Under the pieces are notes generated by a model, which was not told where the DNA came from, did not search any database, and saw only the letters and a program-made list of their open reading frames with translations. A stretch of DNA of 64,000 nucleotides from Eledone cirrhosa (taxonomy: Eukaryota), in assembly GCA_964016885.1 (NCBI GenBank), contig OZ024740.1:174778001-174842000 (forward strand), read 5' to 3'. The position numbers and the translations under genes are program-made. Positions 2,593-64,000 of the stretch are shown here, in pieces. Positions within the stretch are counted from its first letter, which is position 1. Every line of letters begins with the position of its first letter.

Positions 2593-2601
<9 letters not shown>

Positions 2602-3155
2602 TAAAAAAATAATGAATAAAACAATGAAACAGTTCCTTATATTAAACAAAAAAAGTTCATTATTTAACGATCGTTTCTAGGATATATATGTGTTAGAATT
2701 GGCATGCATATTCAACAGATCTATGTACAAAATTATACAAAATTATACAAACTATCAAGATTAAATATACATACCAAACACACATATATGCCGTCTTCAG
2801 AAATAAGATTATTTCTGAAGACGGCATATATGTGTGTTTGGTATGTATATTTAATCTTGATAGTTTGTATAATTTTGTATAATTTTGTACATAGATCTGT
2901 TGAATATGCATGCCAATTCTAACACATATATATCCTAGAAACGATCGTTAAATAATGAACTTTTTTTGTTTAATATAAGGAACTGTTTTATTGTTTTATT
3001 CATTATTTTTTTAATATTTTATCTTGACTCTGTATTCCGTTTATCTTTCACCGAAAGTGATTTTTCATTGCATCTCTTCTTTCCATGATATCCGGACTAC
3101 ATTGAGTTCTTCATACGGATTGGACACTACCGTAAACTCTTGGTAGATTTATCTA
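2593..3155. mobile_element. Fold-back HHR element: 214-bp inverted arms (2593-2806 / 2809-3022) plus ~130-bp unique tail, in (TA)n
   Basis: Arms are reverse complements with one visible mismatch and a 2-nt spacer (GA). Confidence 0.9.
2809..2955 (+). ncRNA. Type I HHR with ~115-nt extended stem II (mirror copy 2660-2806 on -)
   Basis: TTATTT-CTGAAGA-[long hairpin]-GAAA-CGATCG-TT-AAATAA. Stem III palindrome ACGATCGT; stem II pairs ATATATGTGTGTT/AACACATATATAT and GGTATGTATATTTA/TGAATATGCATGCC with G-U wobbles. Confidence 0.8.
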
Positions 3156-3417
3156 CATATATATATATATATATATATATATAAACAAACGAACAAAGCG
3201 GCGTTATAATAAACGTCGGCTAAACTGATGCGTGCATATATGTATGTGTACCTGTATGCATATGTGTATATATATATGTATATATATATATATGTATATA
3301 TATGCATGCTACTGTACGTCTGTATACATATATGTATGTACGTATACATACATACTTACATTTAAGTAAGTGCCATACTAAGAGTGAGAAATGAAATTTC
3401 GTTTTCATTTTTTTCAA

Positions 3418-3491
<74 letters not shown>

Positions 3492-4738: not shown

Positions 4739-4801
<63 letters not shown>

Positions 4802-4807
<6 letters not shown>

Positions 4808-5726
4808 AAGTCATATCTAGTAACATATATATACATACAGATGCATATCAATGCTAGCAAATATATAGGTTTTGTCTTAATAACAGTGTGGTTCAATGCA
4901 TGGGGTTGCAGAACAATAATATAAGAGACGTAAAATAAGAAAATTATAAAATTAACTTACTTACTAAAATATCACTTCCAACTAATTAGTTTCTGGAATG
5001 GAGTAAATATATTTTCCGAAGAATAATTTAGAGAAGCATTCCGTCGTCAGGAAAGTCTATTCTCATGTAAGTTTCCAGGCAAAGCGAGGACACTGGAAAC
5101 TTATTAAAAAATAATTCAGTGGATAGGAAATAGCGATGCGTGGACTGAATTCCAAGCCATTGAGAAAATCACTGCCTCTACGTCTGTGGCAAATTCAAAA
5201 AGAATCGAACACGTGACAACGAGGTCAATCAGTGGAAAGTGGTTTGCTAATAAGACAGCGGCCTGCCTACAACCGTAGCAGCAGTCATGGCCAATATTGC
5301 TCGACAAATAATTTGGAGATAATAATAAAGAATTCATATCTAGTAACATATATATACATACAGATGCATATCAATGCTAGCAAATATATAGGTTTTGTCT
5401 TAATAACAGTGTGGTTCAATGCATGGGGCTGCAGAACAATAATATAAGAGACGTAAAATAAGAAAATTATAAAATTAACTTACAGTTTCCAGTGTCCTCG
5501 CTTTGCCTGGAAACTTACATGAGAATAGACTTTCCTGACGACGGAATGCTTCTCTATATTATTCTTCGGAAAATATATTTACTCCATTCCAGAAACCAAT
5601 TAGTTGGAAGTGATATTTTAGTAAGTAAGTTAATTTTATAATTTTCTCATTTTACGTCTCTTATATATATATATATGTGATATTTTAGTAAGTAAGTTAA
5701 TTTTATAATTTTCTTATTTTACGTCT

Positions 5727-5731
<5 letters not shown>
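4802..5731 (-). mobile_element. 523-bp HHR monomer, ~1.3 tandem copies plus inverted segment (5484-5665), in (TA)n
   Basis: 4802-4960 repeats at 5325-5483; 5484-5665 is the reverse complement of ~4920-5101; short re-duplication at 5677-5731. Confidence 0.85.
4974..5056 (-). ncRNA. Type I HHR (mirror copy 5529-5611 on +)
   Basis: ACTTTC-CTGACGA-C-GGAATG...TTC(TTCG)GAA...CATTCC-A-GAAA-CTAATTAG-TT-GGAAGT; palindromic stem III ACTAATTAGT. Confidence 0.8.
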
Positions 5732-5816
<85 letters not shown>

Positions 5817-5839
5817 GATATATATAAATATATATATAA

Positions 5840-10310: not shown

Positions 10311-10549
10311 GCAGACAGCTAGGCATACACACAGATATTATAAGAGCGCGACGGAGATGGATAACCGGCGCCTAACACCCCTTTAACAACAGAAAATTGA
10401 AAAATAAAAGCTGCAGTTAATATCTTTAGACCGCTAGGAATATATAAATGCAAGTTTGAAGTCAATCGGAGTAGAAATGTGGATTTGTATAGACTTTGCA
10501 AAAATGAGGACACACACACAGGCAACATCAGTTATATATATATATATAT

Positions 10550-10940
10550 ATATAAAATCAAAAGATGGTTAAAAGAGTTCCGTGTATTTTATTATGCGCA
10601 TTTCAAAAACAAATATCATCATGGGATGATATTTGCGTTCTCATCAGATAAAATAGGGAGACATGATATGAAGCTTAAAAAACACTTGCGAGCAGTGAAG
10701 TGTTAAATCAACAAGTGTTTTTAAGCTTCATATCATGTCTCCCTATTTTATCTGATGAGAACGCAAATATCATCCCATGATGATATTTGTTTTTGAAATG
10801 CGCATAATAAAATACATGGAACTCTTTTAACCATCTTTTGATTTTATATTATTTATACTCCAGTCCTATAAACTGTTGAGTGCTACTTATCCGATATTTG
10901 CATTGCTTTATTGTGCTACAATAAAACTCACCTCCTACAT
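10550..10940. mobile_element. Fold-back HHR element: ~138-bp inverted arms (10550-10688 / 10712-10849) plus ~90-bp tail, in (TA)n
   Basis: Arms are near-perfect reverse complements with a ~23-nt spacer. Confidence 0.9.
10744..10814 (+). ncRNA. Type I HHR (mirror copy 10585-10655 on -)
   Basis: TATTTTAT-CTGATGA-gaacg-CAAATATCATC(ccat)GATGATATTTG-ttttt-GAAA-TGCGCA-TA-ATAAAATA: 8-bp stem I, palindromic stem III, AUA triplet. Confidence 0.9.
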
Positions 10941-11132
10941 TATATATATATATATACACATATATATATATATATTGGAATAAATGCTCTGAAATAGCGA
11001 TATATATGTGAATATAGACATAGAATATTCGAAAATATTCTGTATGTTTATAATAAACATTTTGAAGACCTAATCGCTATAGAATAGAATACGTCACGTA
11101 TTACAATTAGATTCTCGATAAAAGCAAGGGAA

Positions 11133-11175
11133 GTAATCTACGCGTTTCATTCTTGTTAGAAATCTTCAGGACTAC
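11133..11175 (-). ncRNA. Minimal type I HHR of the 310-bp unit (also 11443-11485, 11753-11795)
   Basis: Reverse complement of the motif at 12354-12396. Confidence 0.88.
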
Positions 11176-12353
11176 ATATCCAGTGCTTTTATCGAGAATG
11201 ACACAGCTAGAGACTTATAGAATACTTAGCTGTGTACAGGAACTGGTTTGAAAGAGCGGTTGCCGGTCCGGCAGAAATTAGAAATTGGAATAAATGCTCT
11301 GAAATAGCGATATATATGTGAATATAGACATAGAATATTCGAAAATATTCTGTATGTTTATAATAAACATTTTGAAGACCTAATCGCTATAGAATAGAAT
11401 ACGTCACGTATTACAATTAGATTCTCGATAAAAGCAAGGGAAGTAATCTACGCGTTTCATTCTTGTTAGAAATCTTCAGGACTACATATCCAGTGCTTTT
11501 ATCGAGAATGACACAGCTAGAGACTTATAGAATACTTAGCTGTGTACAGGAACTGGTTTGAAAGAGCGGTTGCCGGTCCGGCAGAAATTAGAAATTGGAA
11601 TAAATGCTCTGAAATAGCGATATATATGTGAATATAGACATAGAATATTCGAAAATATTCTGTATGTTTATAATAAACATTTTGAAGACCTAATCGCTAT
11701 AGAATAGAATACGTCACGTATTACAATTAGATTCTCGATAAAAGCAAGGGAAGTAATCTACGCGTTTCATTCTTGTTAGAAATCTTCAGGACTACATATC
11801 CAGTGCTTTTATCGAGAATGACACAGCTAGAGACTTATAGAATACTTAGCTGTGTACAGGAACTGGTTTGAAAGAGCGGTTGCCGGTCCGGCAGAAATTA
11901 GAAATTGGAATAAATGCTCTGAAATAGCGATATATATGTGAATATAGACATAGAATATTCGAAAATATTCTGTATGTTTATAATAAACATTTTGAAGACC
12001 TAATCGCTATAGAATAGAATACGTCACGTATTACAATTAGATTCTCGATAAAAGCAAGGGAAGTAATCTACGCGTTTCATTCTTGTTATAAAGACCTTTA
12101 TCGAGAATCTAATTGTAATACGTGACGTATTCTATTCTATAGCGATTAGGTCTTCAAAATGTTTATTATAAACATACAGAATATTTTCGAATATTCTATG
12201 TCTATATTCACATATATATCGCTATTTCAGAGCATTTATTCCAATTTCTAATTTCTGCCGGACCGGCAACCGCTCTTTCAAACCAGTTCCTGTACACAGC
12301 TAAGTATTCTATAAGTCTCTAGCTGTGTCATTCTCGATAAAAGCACTGGATAT

Positions 12354-12396
12354 GTAGTCCTGAAGATTTCTAACAAGAATGAAACGCGTAGATTAC
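12354..12396 (+). ncRNA. Minimal type I HHR of the 310-bp unit (also 12664-12706, 12974-13016)
   Basis: GTAGTC-CTGAAGA-T-TTCT(aaca)AGAA-T-GAAA-CGCG-TA-GATTAC: GUA triplet, palindromic stem III ACGCGT, flanked by 16-bp distal helix ATTCTCGATAAAAGCA/TGCTTTTATCGAGAAT. Confidence 0.9.
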
Positions 12397-13136
12397 TTCC
12401 CTTGCTTTTATCGAGAATATAATTGTAATACGTGACGTATTCTATTCTATAGCGATTATGTCTTCAAAATGTTTATTATAAACATACAGAATATTTTCGA
12501 ATATTCTATGTCTATATTCACATATATATCGCTATTTCAGAGCATTTCTTCCAATTTCTAATTTCTGCCGGACCGGCAACCGCTCTTTCAAACCAGTTCC
12601 TGTACACAGCTAAGTATTCTATAAGTCTCTAGCTGTGTCATTCTCGATAAAAGCACTGGATATGTAGTCCTGAAGATTTCTAACAAGAATGAAACGCGTA
12701 GATTACTTCCCTTGCTTTTATCGAGAATCTAATTGTAATACGTGACGTATTCTATTCTATAGCGATTAGGTCTTCAAAATGTTTATTATAAACATACAGA
12801 ATATTTTCGAATATTCTATGTCTATATTCACATATATATCGCTATTTCAGAGCATTTATTCCAATTTCTAATTTCTGCCGGACCGGCAACCGCTCTTTCA
12901 AACCAGTTCCTGTACACAGCTAAGTATTCTATAAGTCTCTAGCTGTGTCATTCTCGATAAAAGCACTGGATATGTAGTCCTGAAGATTTCTAACAAGAAT
13001 GAAACGCGTAGATTACTTCCCTTGCTTTTATCGAGAATCTAATTGTAATACGTGACGTATTCTATTCTATAGCGATTAGGTCTTCAAAATGTTTATTATA
13101 AACATACAGAATATTTTCGAATATTCTATGTCTATA

Positions 13137-13194
<58 letters not shown>

Positions 13195-13378: not shown

Positions 13379-13383
13379 TATAG

Positions 13384-13721
<338 letters not shown>

Positions 13722-24390: not shown

Positions 24391-27300
24391 TTTCTCTTTC
24401 TCTTAATTTTGAGTATATTTTTTGACCGGCCACCTTCCTGGTGGCAAGGTTGTAAAAGAAAAGAAATTGTCATCCCTTGAATCGCAAGAATGTTTTGCAA
24501 ATTTTGAAGGTGCCAGCTATCGCAGCCATTTGTAGACTATGAATTAGGGAGCTGCGCTTTTTGTCCGCAAATCCAAGTTCAGTCATACTTTGGTCCAAGC
24601 GGGTTGGTATATAACCAGTAGCACTAATAATGATGGGTATGAAGCTAAAGGTGTATCTTGGATACTGGATTTGTAAACTCCTCATCAATGGTCCGTAGAT
24701 GTCCTCCTTCTCCTGTATTTTTCTGACAACGTTTACATCAAGTGGGCAGCTGATCTCCACAACAGAACACGTTTTCAATGTGTGGTCCCAAACTACAATA
24801 TCAGGCCGGTTGTGCTTTAATTTGGTGGCAGTTTTTTATTTTCAGGTTCCACCAGTATTCCTTAGTGCCATCTGTCTCAATATATTCTTCCTCGTTTGTT
24901 GTTGATTTTGTTTTCCGAAGTGCGTTCCAGATGGTTCTAGCTATCCCATCGTGTCTCGTGGGGAGGTAGTAGCGAGATGACATTCTTTCGCAGCTGGCAA
25001 CAATGTGGCTTACATCCTCGATCTTTGTTTTACATAGCCTACATTTATTGTCAGCTGCTGGCCCTCCTCTTTTGTGCAGCAGATATTTGGTTGGGAGTTC
25101 TTGTTCCTGTATTGCATAGAGATATCCCTCAAGGTGTGATGTCATAAACTTGTCGGAACTCCATGCCAGGCTTTTTGAGTGGTTTATCCCCTCTATGGTC
25201 TGTGTTTTACGCCTCAAGTATCCATGCACAACTTTTTCTGTAAATTGGTCAATTTTTTTTTTCTTGTTTGAACATTGAATAGGATCTTCCGATTTCTCTG
25301 GGTGAGAGATTTATATCAGGCTTTATTCCATATCTCTCCTCCAGATCAGTCGCTATTCTAATGATATTTCTTTTTTCATGGTCATAAACCTGGGCAAGAT
25401 GGTTGCCAACCTTTTTCCTCTGTTGAAGGTGTTGCTTCAGTGTCACTATCCGGGTCTCATATGTTGTTAATATTGATTTTAGACCCCGGCCACCTTCCTT
25501 GCGTGAGAAGTATAGCCTATCCACATCACCATTGATGTTAAAGTTCCCAGTAACACTGAGAAGTTTTCGAGTTCTAACATCCATCTCACTTAGTTCTTGC
25601 AATGACCAGTTCAGTAGGCCAAATGTTGGCGTTAGAATTGGCACAGCATAAGTATTGTGGGCAATGTATTTGTTGTATGCTGACAGTTCTGATGACCATA
25701 TTTTCTTTACTCTTCTGAGGTATTCAGTTCTGGTTCTCTCCTTATTTATGGGTCCATCATATCTGACATTCTCATCCTGTCCAAGATATCTGTAGTTGTC
25801 ACCTGACTGCAGAGGTTGTATTGTCAGGCCGTTCATCTCTAGATTTCTAGAGGAGAGCACAGCTCTTCCACGTTTTACTGCCAAATATGCACACTTGGAC
25901 TCACCAAATTTCATTTTGATGTCGGTTGAAAATTGTGTAATGAGGTCCAATTGTTTCTTGATGTCATTGATATTTGGCCCATACAACTTCAGGTCATCAA
26001 CAAAGAAAAGATGGGAGATACTTCTGGTCCCACTTCTTTGTCGACCTTGTTTCCTGAGTAGGTAAGATAGTGGATTCAGTGACAGAACGAAGAGTAGCAC
26101 TGACAAGCTATCACCCTGAAAGATGCCCTTCTGGTAATGTATCTTATCAGTCTTAACCTGCTCCTTCTCACCTCTAAGGATCAAACTGGTGTACCAGTTC
26201 TTGGTCAGGCGTTCAACAGCAGCTACCAATGGTTGTGGGACTTTAGCTAACTGTAAAGCCTTAACAATCCACCCATGAGGTACACTATCAAATGCTTTTT
26301 GATAGTCCAGCCACACGACAGTCATGTTTCTGCGATTCTTTGTTGTTTTTTCCTGAATCATTTTGTTAGTTAGTAGGTGATCTATGCAACCCCACACCTC
26401 CCTCTTTCCACCAGCTTGCTCAGGTGTTATGATGTTGTTGGTAGCACAGTGATCCTGTAAGAACAGGTTAAGGCACCCAGTATATAATTTATACATGATG
26501 TTTTGGCAGGCAATTGGGCGGTAATTTTTAGCAAGGGTGGTTTGGCTATTTTGGGGAATGAGGAGAGTAGAGGCAGTTGATAACCATCTGGGCAGTTCTT
26601 GTGTGCCCTTAATGGTTTCTGTAAACAGTCGTATGAGATCTTGCCGATAGAAAGTGAAATTCTTCAACCAGTATCCTGTAATGAGGTCTGGGCCTGGCGA
26701 TTTCCTATTCGACATTTTCTGTAGAGCTGTTTCCAGTATTGACCCATCTATGTCATATTGTTTTGTCTGGACATGTTGGCAGTAGTCCTGTTCCAGTTAT
26801 TTTAGCCAATTAGCTTGTCTGTTGAATCCGTCATCCGTTTCCCATACAGATCTCCAGTAGCTCTCAACCTGTTCTTTTGAAGGGGTGTCATTTACAGAGA
26901 TTGAGCTTTTGCCACCGAAGCTGCGATAAACTGATTTAGGATCTCTGGCAAACAATCTATTTAGCACTTGTCGTTTATGTGCTGTTGACTTATATTTTAG
27001 TCTTTCTGTTGTAGCTGTGAGTTGTTGTTTCAACTGGTGTAATTTGGAGTTCAAAGTTTTAAATTTTGTATCTCCAAATCTTCTCTCTAACATTTTCTTT
27101 AGGTCTTCCTGGTGTTGTGTGAAGTTGCTCTCTATGTTGCATTTCATAACGACTGCGATGTGTGAGATACTTCGTCTCAGGGACAAAATTTTGGTTTTTA
27201 AATTTCGCATCCACGCTGGTTCAGGCTTTCTGTTTGTATCTTGATTGCGTGGTTTTAGATGTGTGTTATATGCTAGCAATGTGACAGCTGAAACATATAA

Positions 27301-28420
27301 CAAAACATTAAGCGTTTCAAATGTCGTTTCTACACCTTTAGATCGTATAGCCTTCAGATAATTGCCAGCTATTTCGTTCACCGCTTCCAATTCCAATTTA
27401 GTGGGTTCTTTACTGACTCTAGTGTTGTATGGTCTGTCACTCACATTAAGGCTGTGTATCTCTTGAAACATATCATTCCATATCACTTGTAGGGAGCCCA
27501 CAAGTTTTTGGTGCTCTGTTTGTTCAGTAGAGTCATGAATTTCAGCCTCGTTGTTGATGTGGTGACAATTACTACTAGAGTCAGCTGACCTTTCTCGCTG
27601 TTCTTCAGTGGAAGTGGGATGAATTTCAGCAAAATTGTTGGTGAGCTGTTCACTGTTAGATTTAGCTGGCCATTCTCTTTGTCTGTCAGTGGAGGTGGGG
27701 TGGTTGTCTACAAGGGCTGTATTTGTAGTATCACTCGATTCCGTTAGATGTATCAATTTACATCTAATGATACGTTTTGCCTGTTCATTTAAATGCTTTG
27801 GAGAAAAGTCTAATTCTGGGTGTTTGGAGTTCCATAAAGTTTTTAGCCGTTGCATAAAACCGAACTTTTTGGGTTCAGATTGTTTGTATGCTTCATATAA
27901 TACTTTGTTAAGCTCGTAGGTCCACTGTGTACAACGGTTGTAATTGCGATTTGGTCGAAGGAGACTTGTACTTTTTGCCATGATGAGTTCGTCTATTCAC
28001 TAATATTTCGTATTTATTTTTCAAAATAGTCGATGATCTTCTTTAAAAGTTACGACAAAGTTCTGTCAGAATCAAATTTAAAGTTATTCACAGCTTGAGT
28101 AATATTTCTTTTCAGTTAGTTTTTAATTCTACAGCTGTGTTTTATATAAATGTAATATTTCTTTATAAATGTAATATAACAACGTTGCATTTATATGTTA
28201 AAGTGTATGTATCGTTCATATATCATAAGTGTATGTATCGTTCATATAAATAGGTGTTTTACAACACACTTACAGTTCAAACACTTATGTAGAATTATTG
28301 TATGTAATCTTACCGCGTAATGTAGCTCAACTTTTTCCAATATATGGTATGTTGCCTTCATGTAAGCCGTAATTACACACGTCCGATTATCGGACACTGA
28401 CCACAACGGTCGCCATTTTG
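24391..28420 (-). mobile_element. Near full-length R4/Dong-clade non-LTR retrotransposon (RT plus restriction-like endonuclease) in (TATG)n
   Basis: Single long ORF with ~440-nt 5' UTR, short 3' UTR with hairpin GCCACC(aggaa)GGTGGC, TATG/TG microsatellite on both flanks. Confidence 0.9.
24470..27981 (-). pseudogene. R4-type RT/RLE polyprotein with one in-frame stop (26797) and two frameshifts (~25255, ~24833)
   Basis: KSPGPD, YRPIAC, WLDYQKAFDSVPH, GIFQGDSLS, HLFFVDDLKLY, YRYLG; CCHC CRLC...HIVASC; RHD; NRPDIVVWD...VVEISCP nuclease motif; R4-type N-terminus QWTYELNKVL...GFMQRLKTLW. Confidence 0.9.
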
Positions 28421-59118: not shown

Positions 59119-62100
59119 TAAATACTACTTGAAATTTCAGTTCATATGTACTAAATATGAAATGTGTGGAAAGCCTCATTTTCTGCATATGTTTGTAGCT
59201 TCTCAGTTACAGCAGTGGCAGCCACAATAGTGACTACTACTGTTTGCAATAAAACCTCTTCACAGCTCTAGTGATTCTGTTGGCTTTGCTTTTACTGCTT
59301 GTCAAGAAAATCAATAAAATTGTAGCTATCAGGAAAAGAAGCCATTATTCAGTTCAGTGCTACCATAATGCTGCTATTACTAACAATGTCGTTGTCGTAT
59401 AGCCTACTAGACTGGACAGGCTTCTTCTAAACCTGTCCAACTGTATATATATATATATCTACATATGTCTGCAATTTTTCATTTAATATTTAACATATCA
59501 GCTCCTTTTTCTTACTCATTTAGTCCTCTAACATCTGAAGGACATAAAGTGTTAATTAGACTTTTTTAAACTTTTGATGTCTTAATTCTCACTGATGCTT
59601 TAAAAGCAGATATATTGCCTCATACTCATACCAGTATTGATTAGGTGTGAAGAAGGCTGGAGGCTTACAGAAAATGTATATGACCTTCAAAAGTTCTTAA
59701 TATTTCTAAACTCAGTGTATCATATTTTTCATTATTATATCTTGAATATATTGGAACTGAATTCTTATGCATTTTTACATGGAAAGTGATTTAACTGCTG
59801 AAATTTAAAAGCTAATTCTGCTGCAAAGGTTTGCTTTAGTGTTTGCATAAGTAAACTTGTTTTAAACCAATTGTAATGCTGGTTAATACTTCAATTGGCA
59901 CACAATGTGCATCTATAAATAATCAGTGTTAAGTATGACTTTTTATCTATAATTATACCATTTCAAAGTATTTGACTCTAGCCAGAAGCAGCTACTTAAT
60001 CTGCTTCATCCTTGATAAAGTCTAACTACTGACAGACAGGTTAGTGTCAGTTGGTTGGGATAATGGGGGATCAGAGCAACTCTTAATATCAGTGGCTCAC
60101 TGCTTTATTTTCGTACTACCCGAGTGAAATCTATCAAACACTACCAGTTGATCATATACATCAGTTGATTACTCAAGGATCTAAGGAGTACAAAATTCCA
60201 TTTGGATTACTTTTAAAAATTATTGCTTGGAAAATTGCATTATTACTATGATTCTCTCTTGGAGTATTATTTCACTGTGATGTCAAACTAATTTGCTCTC
60301 TACCAATTATGTCTGAAGGAGACAAGAAACCCATAATGGTCACTAATAACCAGGTTAGATTTTATCTTTTATCTAATGGCACATTGAAAAAAACTGATTT
60401 GAGAAATTTTTTTTTTCTCTTTAACATTGGAAGATTAGATTTTTGTTGGTAAAACATCTTTATTCATTTCAATACAGACTCCAGATCACCTTGTGTTTTG
60501 ATATTTTAAAAATGTTTTCTAAGTCATGTTTTATTTTATTTTTAGGGTCCTCGGGCTGAGAGCTACCGATATGCTGTCACCCCAGGAGGCCAGGAGAAGA
60601 AGAAGGGGAAGAAGAAGGGGGAAGATCTCGATGAACTTAAACAGGAATTGGATATGGTAAATTGATTGATTTTTAATTGTTCTTTAATGTAATGGCATTT
60701 TCTTGTCTACATCACAATTGACTATATAATGTTATATTTCCAGCTTGTCATAATGTAAAAGTTGCTCTTTGAAATAATCCAAATAAGTATATGTCTGTAT
60801 ATTATTACTTTGTAGTTTTAAATAATTCTGCTGGAATATTTTCAATATTATAAAATATCATTGAGCCCAATTTTTGCTTTATTGACATGAATATATTATG
60901 GTTGAAAGCATTATTTTCAGAATATTTGTGAAAAGTTGTGTAAATTTAAATTTGTAGCATACAACATAAAATATTTCTCAATTGTTCATAAATTTGAGTT
61001 ATGTTGCTTTTCAATTAAGCTTTTCAATTCACAAGAATTGATCATTTTACTGCTGCAAGTACTTACGAACTTTATTTCCCCTTAATATTTATTTGGTTCA
61101 TTGTTTTTATACATAATTAATATTCTGCTTGTATTCTTTCCTGTTGGGAGTAGCTTTTCAAATGTTTGGTGCAACTGATTTAACAACTAGAAAAGCACAA
61201 TCCAATGTTTACAATAGTGAAACCCTGAGTATCTGACCAATAGAACAGGACCATAGCATCACTATGGCTGCTCTTTAACTCACTACGACTGCTCTCTTAC
61301 TTAGGTATATTGGTAAATTCATCTGGAAGTGTTAGTCAATTTTAACCATTTAAAAATTTTAAATTTAATAATTTTCTGACATTTATAATCTTTGAAAATC
61401 GTATTTTGTTAAGTATAAGGTCTTTTTTTTTTTTTTTTTTTTTTTTCCTTTTATTTAAATGATTTGACTTTTGCTTCATCATTTAACTTCCATTTTCTAC
61501 GTTAGCATGGGTTAGACGGGTTGCCCCGTTGTGAGATAAGCTAGGTCTAATGACCATGACTCCCTCATACAGGACTGGTTTTACAATTAAATATCTGTAC
61601 TGTGATATAATAATTTTAATCGCACTATATATTTGCCTGTGTTTTATTATTAGAAATCTGGATGTTTTGGTTGGCTTATTTCTTATATGTTCACTCAATT
61701 TCTCATTTTTTACACCAATACTCTTATTTTTTTTTAAAAAAAGAATTTATTTTTTATTTTTTAGGATGAACATAAAGTAGCCATTGAAGAACTTTACCAA
61801 AGGTTAGGAACAGACCCAGCACGAGTAAGTGCAATTATACTAAGAAAACTTAATTTTACTTTTGCTATAAGTTTTAAATTGCTTTGAGTTTTTTTTGGTT
61901 TTTATTTTATCTTAGCAATTAGTTTATTGCATAAAAAGCCAAACTTGCTGTCTTCAATTCAGTATTCATGCCAACCCTTACTTATGGTCATGAATCTTGT
62001 GTAAAGATTGAAAGCAGCTGGAATGGGGTTGCTTTAAAGGATCTTTGGAGTAAAATTACTTGATAGAGTGCATAGCTTAGAGATGAGTCACTCCAGGTAG

Positions 62101-64000
62101 AGCTGCTACTTCTCTGAATTGAGAGATCACAGCTCTGATACTATGGTCATGTGGTTAGACTGTCTCGGGAAAGAATTGCTGGACAGATTTTATGGGCAGG
62201 CGACCCAGGGGTAGACCCCAAGCAAGATGATTGGATAACATCCATGACCTTGGCTGGTCTTGCTTGGGGATCCAGTTGGAGACAGTTGCTTCTGACAGGA
62301 CCCACTGGAAGGAGTGTTGAGGACTCTGCTCCCACGGTCTTCTCAGGAATAAGTGGGCAAAGAAGTATAATAGATTTGATTTTTATCTACATGATTATTA
62401 TAAAATTATCTTTTTTTCTTAATTTTAGGGTCTCAGTCCAGAACGGGCTAAAGAAGTTCTCTTGCGTGATGGACCGAATTGCCTTACCCCACCAAAAACT
62501 ACACCAGAATGGGTCAAGTTTTGCAAAACACTATTTGGTGGTTTCTCGATGTTGCTGTGGATTGGAGCTATATTATGTTTTATTGCCTATGGTATTCAAG
62601 CAGGGACTTATGATGACCCACCCGGCGATAATGTGAGTGTTCTGTGCTGTGCCTCAGTTAAAAATTTACTGGAATGGGATTCGTAGCTGAAATTTTAATA
62701 TTTTTGTTGTTCTTTTATGTAGAATGTATTTACATATTTTTTGTCTTGTTTATTTGCAGAAGAAAATAAATATTAGAATAATTGCTGCTTGACTTTAAAT
62801 GCCTGTGCATATTCTTTTATTCTTTTACTTATTCCAGTCATTAGACTGCAACAATGCCGGTGCACCACCTTGATTTAGTCGAACATTTTGACTTCAGTGC
62901 TTTTTTTTAAAGTCTGGTACTTATTTTATTGATATCTTTCCTGTTGAATTACAGGAAACAGACATACTTATAAATGTGTGTGTGTGTATATATATATATA
63001 TACCAAATCCCACTCACAAGGTTTTAGGTCAGCCTGGTGTTATACTAAAAGCCACTTGCCTAAGGTGCTGTGCAGCATGACTGAATCCAAAACTATATGG
63101 TTTCGAAATGTTGTTTATGACAATCAATCATTGTATTATTGCAATGTTCAAATCAATCCAATCCACTTTGTAAAGTACTTTGGTACAATTTATCTGTGAA
63201 GCAATAAGGCTTGTAGTCAGCATTGATAATAAACATCAGTATGTCACTATCTTTCAATGGTTTCGACTCAGAAGTTTATATATATAACTACATTTTATTA
63301 TTTTCACTAAAATTAAAGATATCATTATTATTTTCATTAAAACTAAAGAAATCATTAATATTTTTACTAATGCAAAATTTCTTTTTTTTTTTTAGTTATA
63401 CCTAGGTATTGTGCTGACTGCTGTAGTAGTTGTCACAGGCATATTTTCCTACTATCAAGAGGCTAAAAGTTCTAGAATTATGGACTCCTTCAAAAACATG
63501 GTACCACAAGTAAGTACTAAAGTTTTTTCTTTTCAGGCTAACTTTGAATTGAATAGTGGTAGATGTAACATGTAACTTCTAAGTTAATGTTTTGATTAGA
63601 CTTGGCATTCATAAAGTTTTTAATTATTTTTCTCTTTATAGTATGCTGTTGTTTTAAGAAGTGGAGAAAAGTTAAACGTACATGCTGAAGACCTTGTAGT
63701 TGGAGACGTAGTAGATGTGAAATTTGGAGATCGTGTCCCAGCTGATATCCGTGTCATTAGTGCTCACAGTTTTAAGGTAGTTTGACTTTCTAGTTTTTCT
63801 TTCCCTTTTAATTTATATAATCTGATTTTTTAGTTTTACTTGTTCACAATGTCACTGAATTGTGTAATTTTCTATTTTCAGGTAGACAACTCATCACTTA
63901 CTGGAGAATCTGAACCACAATCAAGATCAGCTGAGTTCACTAACGAGAACCCATTAGAAACAAAGAATTTAGCTTTTTTCTCAACCAATGCTGTAGAGGG
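53274..64000 (+). CDS. ATP1A: Na+/K+-transporting ATPase alpha subunit, 5' part (coding exons 1-7; gene continues beyond window)
   Basis: Spliced GT-AG exons give [20 protein letters not shown]...[15 protein letters not shown]...[19 protein letters not shown]...(TM1, TM2)...YYQEAKSS...GDRVPADIR...[14 protein letters not shown]...FFSTNAVEG. Confidence 0.97.
60546..60656 (+). CDS. ATP1A: Na+/K+-ATPase alpha exon 2
   Basis: tttag|GGT...ATG|gtaaat; [37 protein letters not shown]. Confidence 0.95.
61765..61824 (+). CDS. ATP1A: Na+/K+-ATPase alpha exon 3
   Basis: [20 protein letters not shown]; ag/gtaagt borders. Confidence 0.95.
61935..62362 (+). mobile_element. RTE LINE 3' fragment in ATPase intron 3
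   Basis: Homologous to 30165-30630 (GACCCAGGGGTAGACCC...CAGGAATAAGTGGGC). Confidence 0.88.
62429..62632 (+). CDS. ATP1A: Na+/K+-ATPase alpha exon 4 (TM1, H1-H2 loop)
   Basis: [22 protein letters not shown]...[16 protein letters not shown]; gtgagt donor. Confidence 0.97.
63396..63509 (+). CDS. ATP1A: Na+/K+-ATPase alpha exon 5 (TM2)
   Basis: [38 protein letters not shown]. Confidence 0.97.
63642..63776 (+). CDS. ATP1A: Na+/K+-ATPase alpha exon 6
   Basis: [10 protein letters not shown]...[20 protein letters not shown]. Confidence 0.97.
63882..63999 (+). CDS. ATP1A: Na+/K+-ATPase alpha exon 7 (A-domain TGES)
   Basis: [40 protein letters not shown]; 3' border at the window edge, so inferred. 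Confidence 0.95.

Follow-up and report, generated by a model that had tools for sequence, protein, structure and literature searches.

How does an element that encodes no enzyme come to lie in a genome as two opposing tandem arrays? This question is raised by a 64,000-nucleotide stretch of Eledone cirrhosa DNA (contig OZ024740.1, positions 174,778,001 to 174,842,000; hereafter the window, whose coordinates are used below), in which a 310-bp unit with a predicted hammerhead ribozyme is repeated head to head at 10974..13140, between microsatellite tracts. In 56 of the 57 two-armed insertions among 66 examined from the family to which this element belongs, the outer ends of the two arms fall at two fixed positions of the unit, one per arm, an anatomy known from Penelope-like elements (PLEs). 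We propose that the insertions were probably made in trans by a PLE reverse transcriptase (RT) and endonuclease, in a reaction where each cut strand primed at its own fixed site and both copied a single RNA template, likely a circle of one unit.

A repeat with a predicted hammerhead in two arms

The left arm (10974..12088, minus strand; 1,115 bp, 3.60 units) and the right arm (12097..13140, plus strand; 1,044 bp, 3.37 units) meet at an 8-nucleotide (nt) insert that the arm alignment leaves unmatched (12089..12096). They are flanked by a (TA)17.5 left target tract (10941..10975) and an (AT)25 right target tract (13140..13189), both called by Tandem Repeats Finder (TRF), which also reports 310-bp arrays at 10974–12092 (3.6 copies, 99%) and 12097–13149 (3.4 copies, 99%). 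The element has a GC content of about 0.33 and no long terminal repeat (LTR), its arms end at internal positions of the unit, and no open reading frame (ORF) of at least 120 amino acids (aa) in the ORF list of the window overlaps it. An initial annotation had described a nearly identical, non-coding 310-bp unit with six CUGAAGA...GAAA-CGCG-UA cores, arranged as ~3.6 left-facing and ~3.4 right-facing units around 8 unmatched nt inside (TA)n, and these data confirm that description.

We number the unit from window position 12701, the first base past a predicted cut. The left arm, whose units are identical, has its outer end (the RNA's 3′ end) at unit position 165, the putative 'long' start site, and its inner end at 291. 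The right arm has its inner end at 17 and its outer end at 130, the putative 'short' start site, within an AU-rich segment (127–139). Pairing between the arms extends for 1,044 nt and is broken by only 3 mismatches (12419, 12459 and 12548), all within one right-arm unit, and 44 nt separate the paired portions. That the left arm contains the right with about 35 nt to spare at each end holds at this locus, the surplus being 35 nt on the outer side and 36 nt on the inner; in the family as a whole, the outer surplus alone recurs systematically. This 35-nt 'tail' (10974..11008, minus strand; unit 131–165), present at the left-arm end only, fits the 30–40-bp one-sided tail of PLEs (PMC8557442).

Six predicted type I hammerhead motifs lie in the element, three on the minus strand of the left arm (11134..11174, 11444..11484 and 11754..11794, with cores at 11169, 11479 and 11789) and three on the plus strand of the right arm (12355..12395, 12665..12705 and 12975..13015, with cores at 12360, 12670 and 12980). 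The predicted cuts of the right-arm copies, after GUA at 12390, 12700 and 13010, are where the initial annotation had placed them. The motif comprises CUGAAGA, GAAA, a 5-bp stem I lengthened by a 16-bp helix, and a stem III of one pair. Structure prediction gives a well-paired stem I (probability 0.78–1.0), and a 310-nt circle is predicted to fold with a minimum free energy of −67.8 kcal/mol (z = −4.8 against 60 shuffles), with stem I formed and the core unpaired. The stem III sequence ACGCGU is self-complementary, and its pairing between two copies amounts to −7.5 kcal/mol. Position N7 of the hammerhead core tolerates change, and it is mainly at N7 that the subfamilies of the unit differ (of the exact 32-nt core matches, 861 have A there and 4,507 have U); in related families, U3–A8 replaces C3–G8 in the core. 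This variability and covariation lend indirect support to a ribozyme function. The hammerhead call is a prediction, drawn from the core motif, the pairing of stem I and the covariation among related families rather than from a model match.

Two fixed end sites, one per arm

The genome assembly (3.0 Gb, 1,796 contigs) contains at least 5,368 exact cores, 861 of CUGAAGA and 4,507 of CUGAUGA type, a count that omits older subfamilies; a reversed-pattern control gave 0. Because the first 100 matches of each of the two core searches fall in 20 and 10 insertions, we extrapolate to roughly 600 insertions in the genome. Treating CUGAUGA as a minor subfamily proved wrong: it makes up 84% of exact cores, and CUGAAGA only 16%. 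The 66 insertions that we examined are the window locus, 37 from 150 matches listed, 12 held-out insertions (those previously unseen among 20 on contig C1, taken in order along the contig), 10 that are the first CUGAUGA insertions, and 6 from variant searches, with the stretches of a satellite-like cluster on contig C14 excluded. The first 50 loci were skewed to the CUGAAGA type, and the 10 CUGAUGA insertions were then added. Singleton divergence among units is 0.085%; the family is young and the insertion in the window very recent.

Head-to-head arms occur in 57 of the 66 insertions, always in minus-then-plus order. One outer end lies at unit 156–172 (mode 165) and the other at 120–139 (modes 130 and 139) in 56 of these 57. 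A script scored 55 of 56 as long plus short (P = 8e-16), with locus L049 scored by hand, and in the held-out set 11 of 11 two-armed insertions were long plus short. The targets are AT-rich or (TA)n. Target-site duplications (TSDs) are unreadable in pure (TA)n, the window locus included; outside microsatellites they measure 16 nt at L041 and 15 nt at L215, microhomology included.

Arm lengths, offsets and junctions were compared at the first 43 two-armed loci. The lengths of the two arms are uncorrelated (rho = 0.04; medians 656 and 719), the short-end arm being the longer in 21 of 43, and the inner-end offsets are uniform round the unit (Rayleigh P = 0.13), with 11 falling within 40 nt against 11.2 expected. 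Inserts occupy 10 of the 43 junctions, and 28 of the 33 insert-free junctions have 1–8 nt of microhomology (47% expected, P = 7e-6); no junction is repeated or copied from a donor among these 43 loci. Most arms (74 of 86) exceed one unit, and arrays reach about 19 units. None of 92 inner ends lies within 10 nt of the cut site, where 5.9 would be expected (the 10-nt bracket was chosen post hoc); there is no sign, then, of run-off from linear cleaved ends. Were both target strands to prime, the minus-then-plus order observed throughout would result. Of the two routes that the initial annotation had offered, fold-back and twin priming, it is the latter that gains support, in a specific form in which each arm has its own fixed start site and the two sites are separated by about 30 nt. 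Separately, an unrelated 272-nt insert lies between the arms at L218 (3099–3370), perhaps RNA or DNA captured at the junction.

At least three related families of the genome share 67–79% identity with the unit over positions about 55–215 (12755..12915, plus strand, in the window). This conserved cassette covers both end sites, and the hammerhead region differs; in the loci seen, the related families also form inverted copies with similar end points. The cassette is likely to be the signal for RT binding and initiation.

Variants shared between the arms

Because the unit is short and young and has thousands of copies, its variants mark the molecule that served as template, and the phases of the arms discriminate between models. 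At 17 loci, all covered units of both arms carry the same variants, 37 in total, and we found no variant that is uniform in one arm yet missing from its partner. For all units to share a variant, there must have been a single-unit bottleneck, which rolling-circle copying supplies, and the agreement between arms therefore points to one unit-length template, likely a circle. If PLE double priming is granted, we consider a circular template the likely one. A genome-wide search for three of the fixed variants found 85C (L171) and 262G (L174) elsewhere only on older backgrounds, and 174A (L175) at one sister locus. The rolling-circle reverse transcript of the initial annotation is thus favoured by haplotypes fixed across both arms, whereas variants shared without fixation, weighed below, speak against a pure monomer circle. 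A further substitution, unit 29 C>A, occurs in single units of three unrelated loci (window 12419, L031 and L215) and is fixed in three others; it is possibly an RT error or a mutation hotspot.

The unit is also present in six sequencing runs from four studies (run kind unrecorded), none of which is listed as RNA. Run X1, from another sample, yields 550 contigs, among them some whose loose ends run into (AT)n at unit 139 (in 9 contigs) and at unit 170, an independent view of both end classes. Runs X2, X3 and X6, from three other studies, each yield one 340-nt contig (310 + 30) that closes a 310-nt cycle, as expected of a circle and of a tandem array alike. An assignment of the X2 and X6 contigs to one subfamily was abandoned, since their differences come without positions. 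No contig listed from four of the six runs crosses the junction of the window locus, a gap that proves nothing.

A probable Penelope-like enzyme acting in trans

The element itself has no RT or GIY-YIG ORF and such ORFs occur elsewhere in the genome, so it is not an autonomous PLE. PLEs are abundant: protein matches occur in 115 of 140 loci (1.05 Mb), with frames for RT and C-terminal GIY-YIG. One young autonomous PLE, at L100 (4304–8492; G000:C2:291.94 Mb), has an 894-aa open frame and copies that are about 99% identical. Its GIY-YIG match is below the cut-off (E = 6e-4), with Atlas neighbours that carry GIY-YIG/HTH_animal. Across 20 regions, 17 of 17 two-armed insertions of this PLE family follow the long-plus-short rule, with ends about 100 nt apart; L101, L102 and L115 show one terminus each, and L118 holds two older copies. 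We consider it very likely that a PLE enzyme mobilised the 310-bp family in trans, because PLEs are abundant, an autonomous PLE has the same anatomy, the marks of the insertions are those published for PLEs, and a PLE protein acts in vitro on two strands from two starts. The initial proposal that a Penelope-type RT inserted a retrozyme-like family into (TA)n is accordingly supported by PLE marks across the family.

Searches for a partner PLE, by blastn and with a cassette profile, returned nothing but additional retrozyme-like copies, and wherever one of these adjoined a PLE ORF, (TA)n lay between them. Weak matches at L033, L125 and L037/L049/L067 were rejected as SINE-adjacent fragments or another non-coding tandem family. 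Two RT–GIY-YIG families (L153 and L167) have hammerheads with a U.U-based stem II and a palindromic tetraloop, as in the retrozyme unit, a likeness that we treat as a lead only.

Small palindromes on either side of the element are stubs left by the 3′ ends of two further PLE families. One, at 10541–10940 (L060/L118 type; hammerhead cores at 10647 minus and 10752 plus), is older, and the (TA)17.5 tract flanks its long end as well; the other lies at 13380–13617 (L068/L046/L047 type). In both, the ends are unequal, with the short and the long one about 90 nt apart. A PLE fragment at 1931–2487 has a GIY-YIG-like minus-strand frame (Pfam E = 0.0026, below the cut-off) and an inverted hammerhead-bearing plus-strand end, with 52,196 first-look candidates genome-wide.

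Proposed mechanism and its alternatives

By analogy with known retrozymes, transcripts of an array would cleave themselves, probably as dimers, and ligate to 310-nt circles. A PLE protein, predicted to be a dimer (PMC11167929), would bind the cassette and nick both strands of AT-rich DNA ~13–16 nt apart; TSDs of 15–16 nt occur at the two non-microsatellite loci. Synthesis would begin at unit ~165 from one 3′-OH and at ~130–139 from the other; the ends are observed, and their assignment as RT starts is our interpretation. Each RT would then round the template for a distance independent of the other, an independence that is observed, and the complementary DNA (cDNA) ends would be joined by 1–3 nt of microhomology or a short insert, giving the antisense-then-sense arms and the junctions that we see. 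Later, arrays would alter by local duplication, as observed at several loci. The fullest form of this proposal, that each insertion is the fossil of two RTs of one PLE dimer that both travelled round one self-cleaved RNA circle of 310 nt, each target strand having its own fixed site, stands in our judgement at even chances.

Several observations weigh against double priming on a self-cleaved circle. Stem II is weak (pair probability about 0.17, with a U.U at its base), and no Rfam hammerhead match was found, whether in the window at the gathering score or in two units at E up to 5; elsewhere, 8 of 9 predicted retrozyme dimers failed to cleave (10.64898/2026.07.22.740005). Seven of the 66 insertions are single-armed and two are interrupted by gaps, and L053 (ends 164/74) is the sole two-armed exception to the long-plus-short rule. 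Three variants are common to both arms yet unfixed (204T at L171, in register in the matching single unit of each arm; 13C at L216b, in one unit per arm; and 2G at L230), which a monomer circle leaves unexplained unless arm-to-arm conversion has occurred. Variants also recur in non-adjacent units at L044, L046, L172 and L218, implying multimer templates, conversion or local duplication. The L100-family PLE has a ~100-nt tail (against 30–40) and a different end sequence, and is therefore a control rather than a proven partner; no PLE homologous to the unit or cassette was found in the 140 loci (1.05 Mb) and 30 loci searched, a small sample of the PLE families of the genome. In vitro, finally, uncleaved RNA was the dominant PLE substrate and start sites did not differ between strands (PMC11167929).

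That substrate preference, the weak stem II and the unfixed variants at L171 and L216b would all suit PLE double priming on a donor array's transcript that stayed linear, multimeric and uncleaved, with cleavage and circles of little or no role. We rate this as a real but minor contender. Variants fixed across both arms still require a single-unit bottleneck somewhere, copies of donor junctions are absent among the 43 loci, and the assembly has no donor for the L171 (85C) and L174 (262G) haplotypes, although a haploid assembly may miss one. Nor is the large C14 cluster the source: considered as a master array donating monomers (C14:25.0–25.3 Mb), it proved to be an older subfamily, with the shared variants on another background. 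Growth in place is improbable in our view, that is, insertion of PLE-type stubs of about one unit that later became concatemers by local unequal exchange and conversion between palindromic arms. Variants that recur in adjacent or periodically spaced units (L044, L046, L047, L172, L216b and L218) and the higher-order C14 cluster suit such growth, and it is the model preferred in 10.64898/2026.07.22.740005. Yet 74 of 86 arms are longer than one unit despite so few singletons, and fixed variants cover both arms while adjacent singletons have not spread (L215 and L232).

A single cDNA that folded back, or a self-primed antisense transcript (PMC3846280), could likewise have been copied into a second arm. 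Arms within 80 nt of each other in length at 5 of the 43 loci (the window locus, L038, L065, L171 and L178), with a perfect palindrome at the centre of L065, are what such copying would leave, and it may account for a minority of loci. For the family we regard it as very unlikely: the two arms vary independently in length and in inner end, the small offsets that this route requires are no commoner than expected and the short-end arm is the longer in about as many loci as not, so that fold-back, as initially suggested, is not supported and the near-symmetry of the window locus is atypical. The least probable explanation, to which we give almost no weight, is an assembly or fold-back read chimera. 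Perfect long palindromes can indeed arise as an artefact of long reads. Here the arms are not mirror copies, since they differ in length and flanks and have two fixed but unequal outer ends, and TSDs of 15–16 nt are present; the same rule governs 56 of 57 loci and an autonomous PLE, and loose ends at both end classes appear in another sample. With 57 two-armed loci in one orientation and no repeated junction, the doubt raised initially over a read chimera is settled in favour of real insertion. Double priming by a PLE enzyme on a single template, likely circular, accordingly remains our preferred reading.

Relation to known retrotransposons

By its sequence, the 310-bp family belongs with the animal non-LTR retrozymes, which are tandem non-coding units of 150–450 bp with a hammerhead each and for which PLE mobilisation has been proposed (Cervera and de la Pena 2020, PMC7229834). 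It shares with them (PMC7229834, 10.64898/2026.07.22.740005) an AT-rich, non-coding tandem unit, three consecutive type I cores per arm (by motif), the lack of LTR and ORF, a GC content below 50%, dispersed high copy number, co-existing PLEs and TSDs longer than 4 bp; a weak stem III with a palindromic loop and a U.U-based stem II are also common to axolotl HHR_Amex1/2. Published retrozymes are direct tandem arrays, whereas ours are inverted with a one-sided tail. In the available text, 'inverted', 'head-to-head' and 'microsatellite' occur 0 times in PMC7229834, and 'tail', 'palindrom' and 'target site' 0 times in 10.64898/2026.07.22.740005. Cleavage and circles have been demonstrated for published retrozymes; for the 310-bp unit they are predictions. 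The link between retrozymes and PLEs has so far consisted of hypothesis, co-occurrence and pLTR homology (PMC7229834; Li, Clavereau and Pollet 2026, 10.64898/2026.07.22.740005), the latter in 24 of 57 Xenopus families (10.64898/2026.07.22.740005), and a 2024 review restates the hypothesis (PMC11722881). Here the link is insertion anatomy; pLTR homology was not found in the 140 + 30 loci sampled.

PLE insertions are marked by an inverted, 5′-truncated copy, often a 30–40-bp tail at one end, and a (TA)n target (PMC8557442, Fig. 2 legend; PMC3846280). The origin of the inverted copy and tail is undefined according to PMC8557442 and is ascribed to self-priming in PMC3846280, an account that our data oppose. 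Head-to-head inversion, the 30–40-bp tail at one end, (TA)n targets, microhomology at junctions and mobilisation in trans through cis sequences are shared with endonuclease-positive (EN+) PLE insertions. Unlike EN+ PLEs, the element is a 310-bp repeat without an RT/GIY-YIG ORF and both of its arms are multi-unit (up to about 19), and the tail that is 'often' at one end in PLEs is confined to a single end in 56 of the 57 two-armed insertions here. In vitro, the Anolis Poseidon PAc protein cleaves an AT-rich target on both strands and extends each of them (Frangieh et al. 2024, PMC11167929), with two internal RT starts downstream of the hammerhead that delimit the tail. That system is autonomous and uses linear RNA, and the available text of PMC11167929 makes no tie to inverted insertions, circles or retrozymes; the rule of one site per strand is what our data add to it.

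In the twin priming of L1, two target strands prime on one RNA and leave a head-to-head inversion with microhomology; the first priming is at the poly(A) tail and the second at variable internal sites, so that non-overlapping segments of a linear RNA are copied. Unlike in L1, neither of the putative retrozyme start sites varies, the distance between them is about 30 nt, and each arm comprises repeated laps.

The initial annotation had recognised neither the family nor its inverted form as described. An inverted copy with a one-sided tail is in fact published for PLEs, and the derivation of retrozymes from PLEs has been published on grounds of homology; on a retrozyme family, our literature search, which lay outside most subscription papers, found no publication of the inverted form or of the one-site-per-strand rule. 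The parts are ordinary and their combination informative, the new element being a family-scale PLE insertion signature on a retrozyme. One small substrate makes two issues testable, namely the mobiliser and template of retrozymes and the origin of the PLE inverted copy with a tail at one end. If two RTs did round one circle, these insertions would be direct genomic evidence for ribozyme circles as templates of retrotransposition, and the inverted copy plus one tail of Penelope elements in general would reflect obligate asymmetric double priming, not self-priming. Read-through from either side makes the antisense arm and then the sense arm, and would therefore give a long double-stranded RNA in which the ribozymes tend to be self-masked; only the surplus unpaired units of two-armed loci would be expected to yield monomers.

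Other repeats and neighbouring genes

The C14 cluster (25.03–25.35 Mb; L222–L226, L239 and L240) is a satellite-like, higher-order array of an older unit subfamily, nearly one-stranded and interleaved with microsatellite. A separate non-coding tandem family of ~480 bp occurs at L037 1934–2637, L049 1–755, L160 7783–10000 and window 3256–3474, with a hammerhead-like core, a similar hairpin and inverted forms too. Inverted structures with hammerhead-like cores also lie in the window at 4739–5826 (cores at 5050 minus and 5535 plus) and 100–509 (100 plus and 509 minus), and 2593–3022 is a 430-bp palindrome (99%). The minus strand at 24470–27996 carries a non-LTR retrotransposon in which a match to RVT_1 (E = 2e-24) is followed downstream by a zinc-knuckle/nuclease-like frame. 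About 47 kb downstream of the element, 60600–63780 on the plus strand holds what we take, from their motifs, to be coding exons of a Na+/K+-ATPase alpha subunit-like gene.
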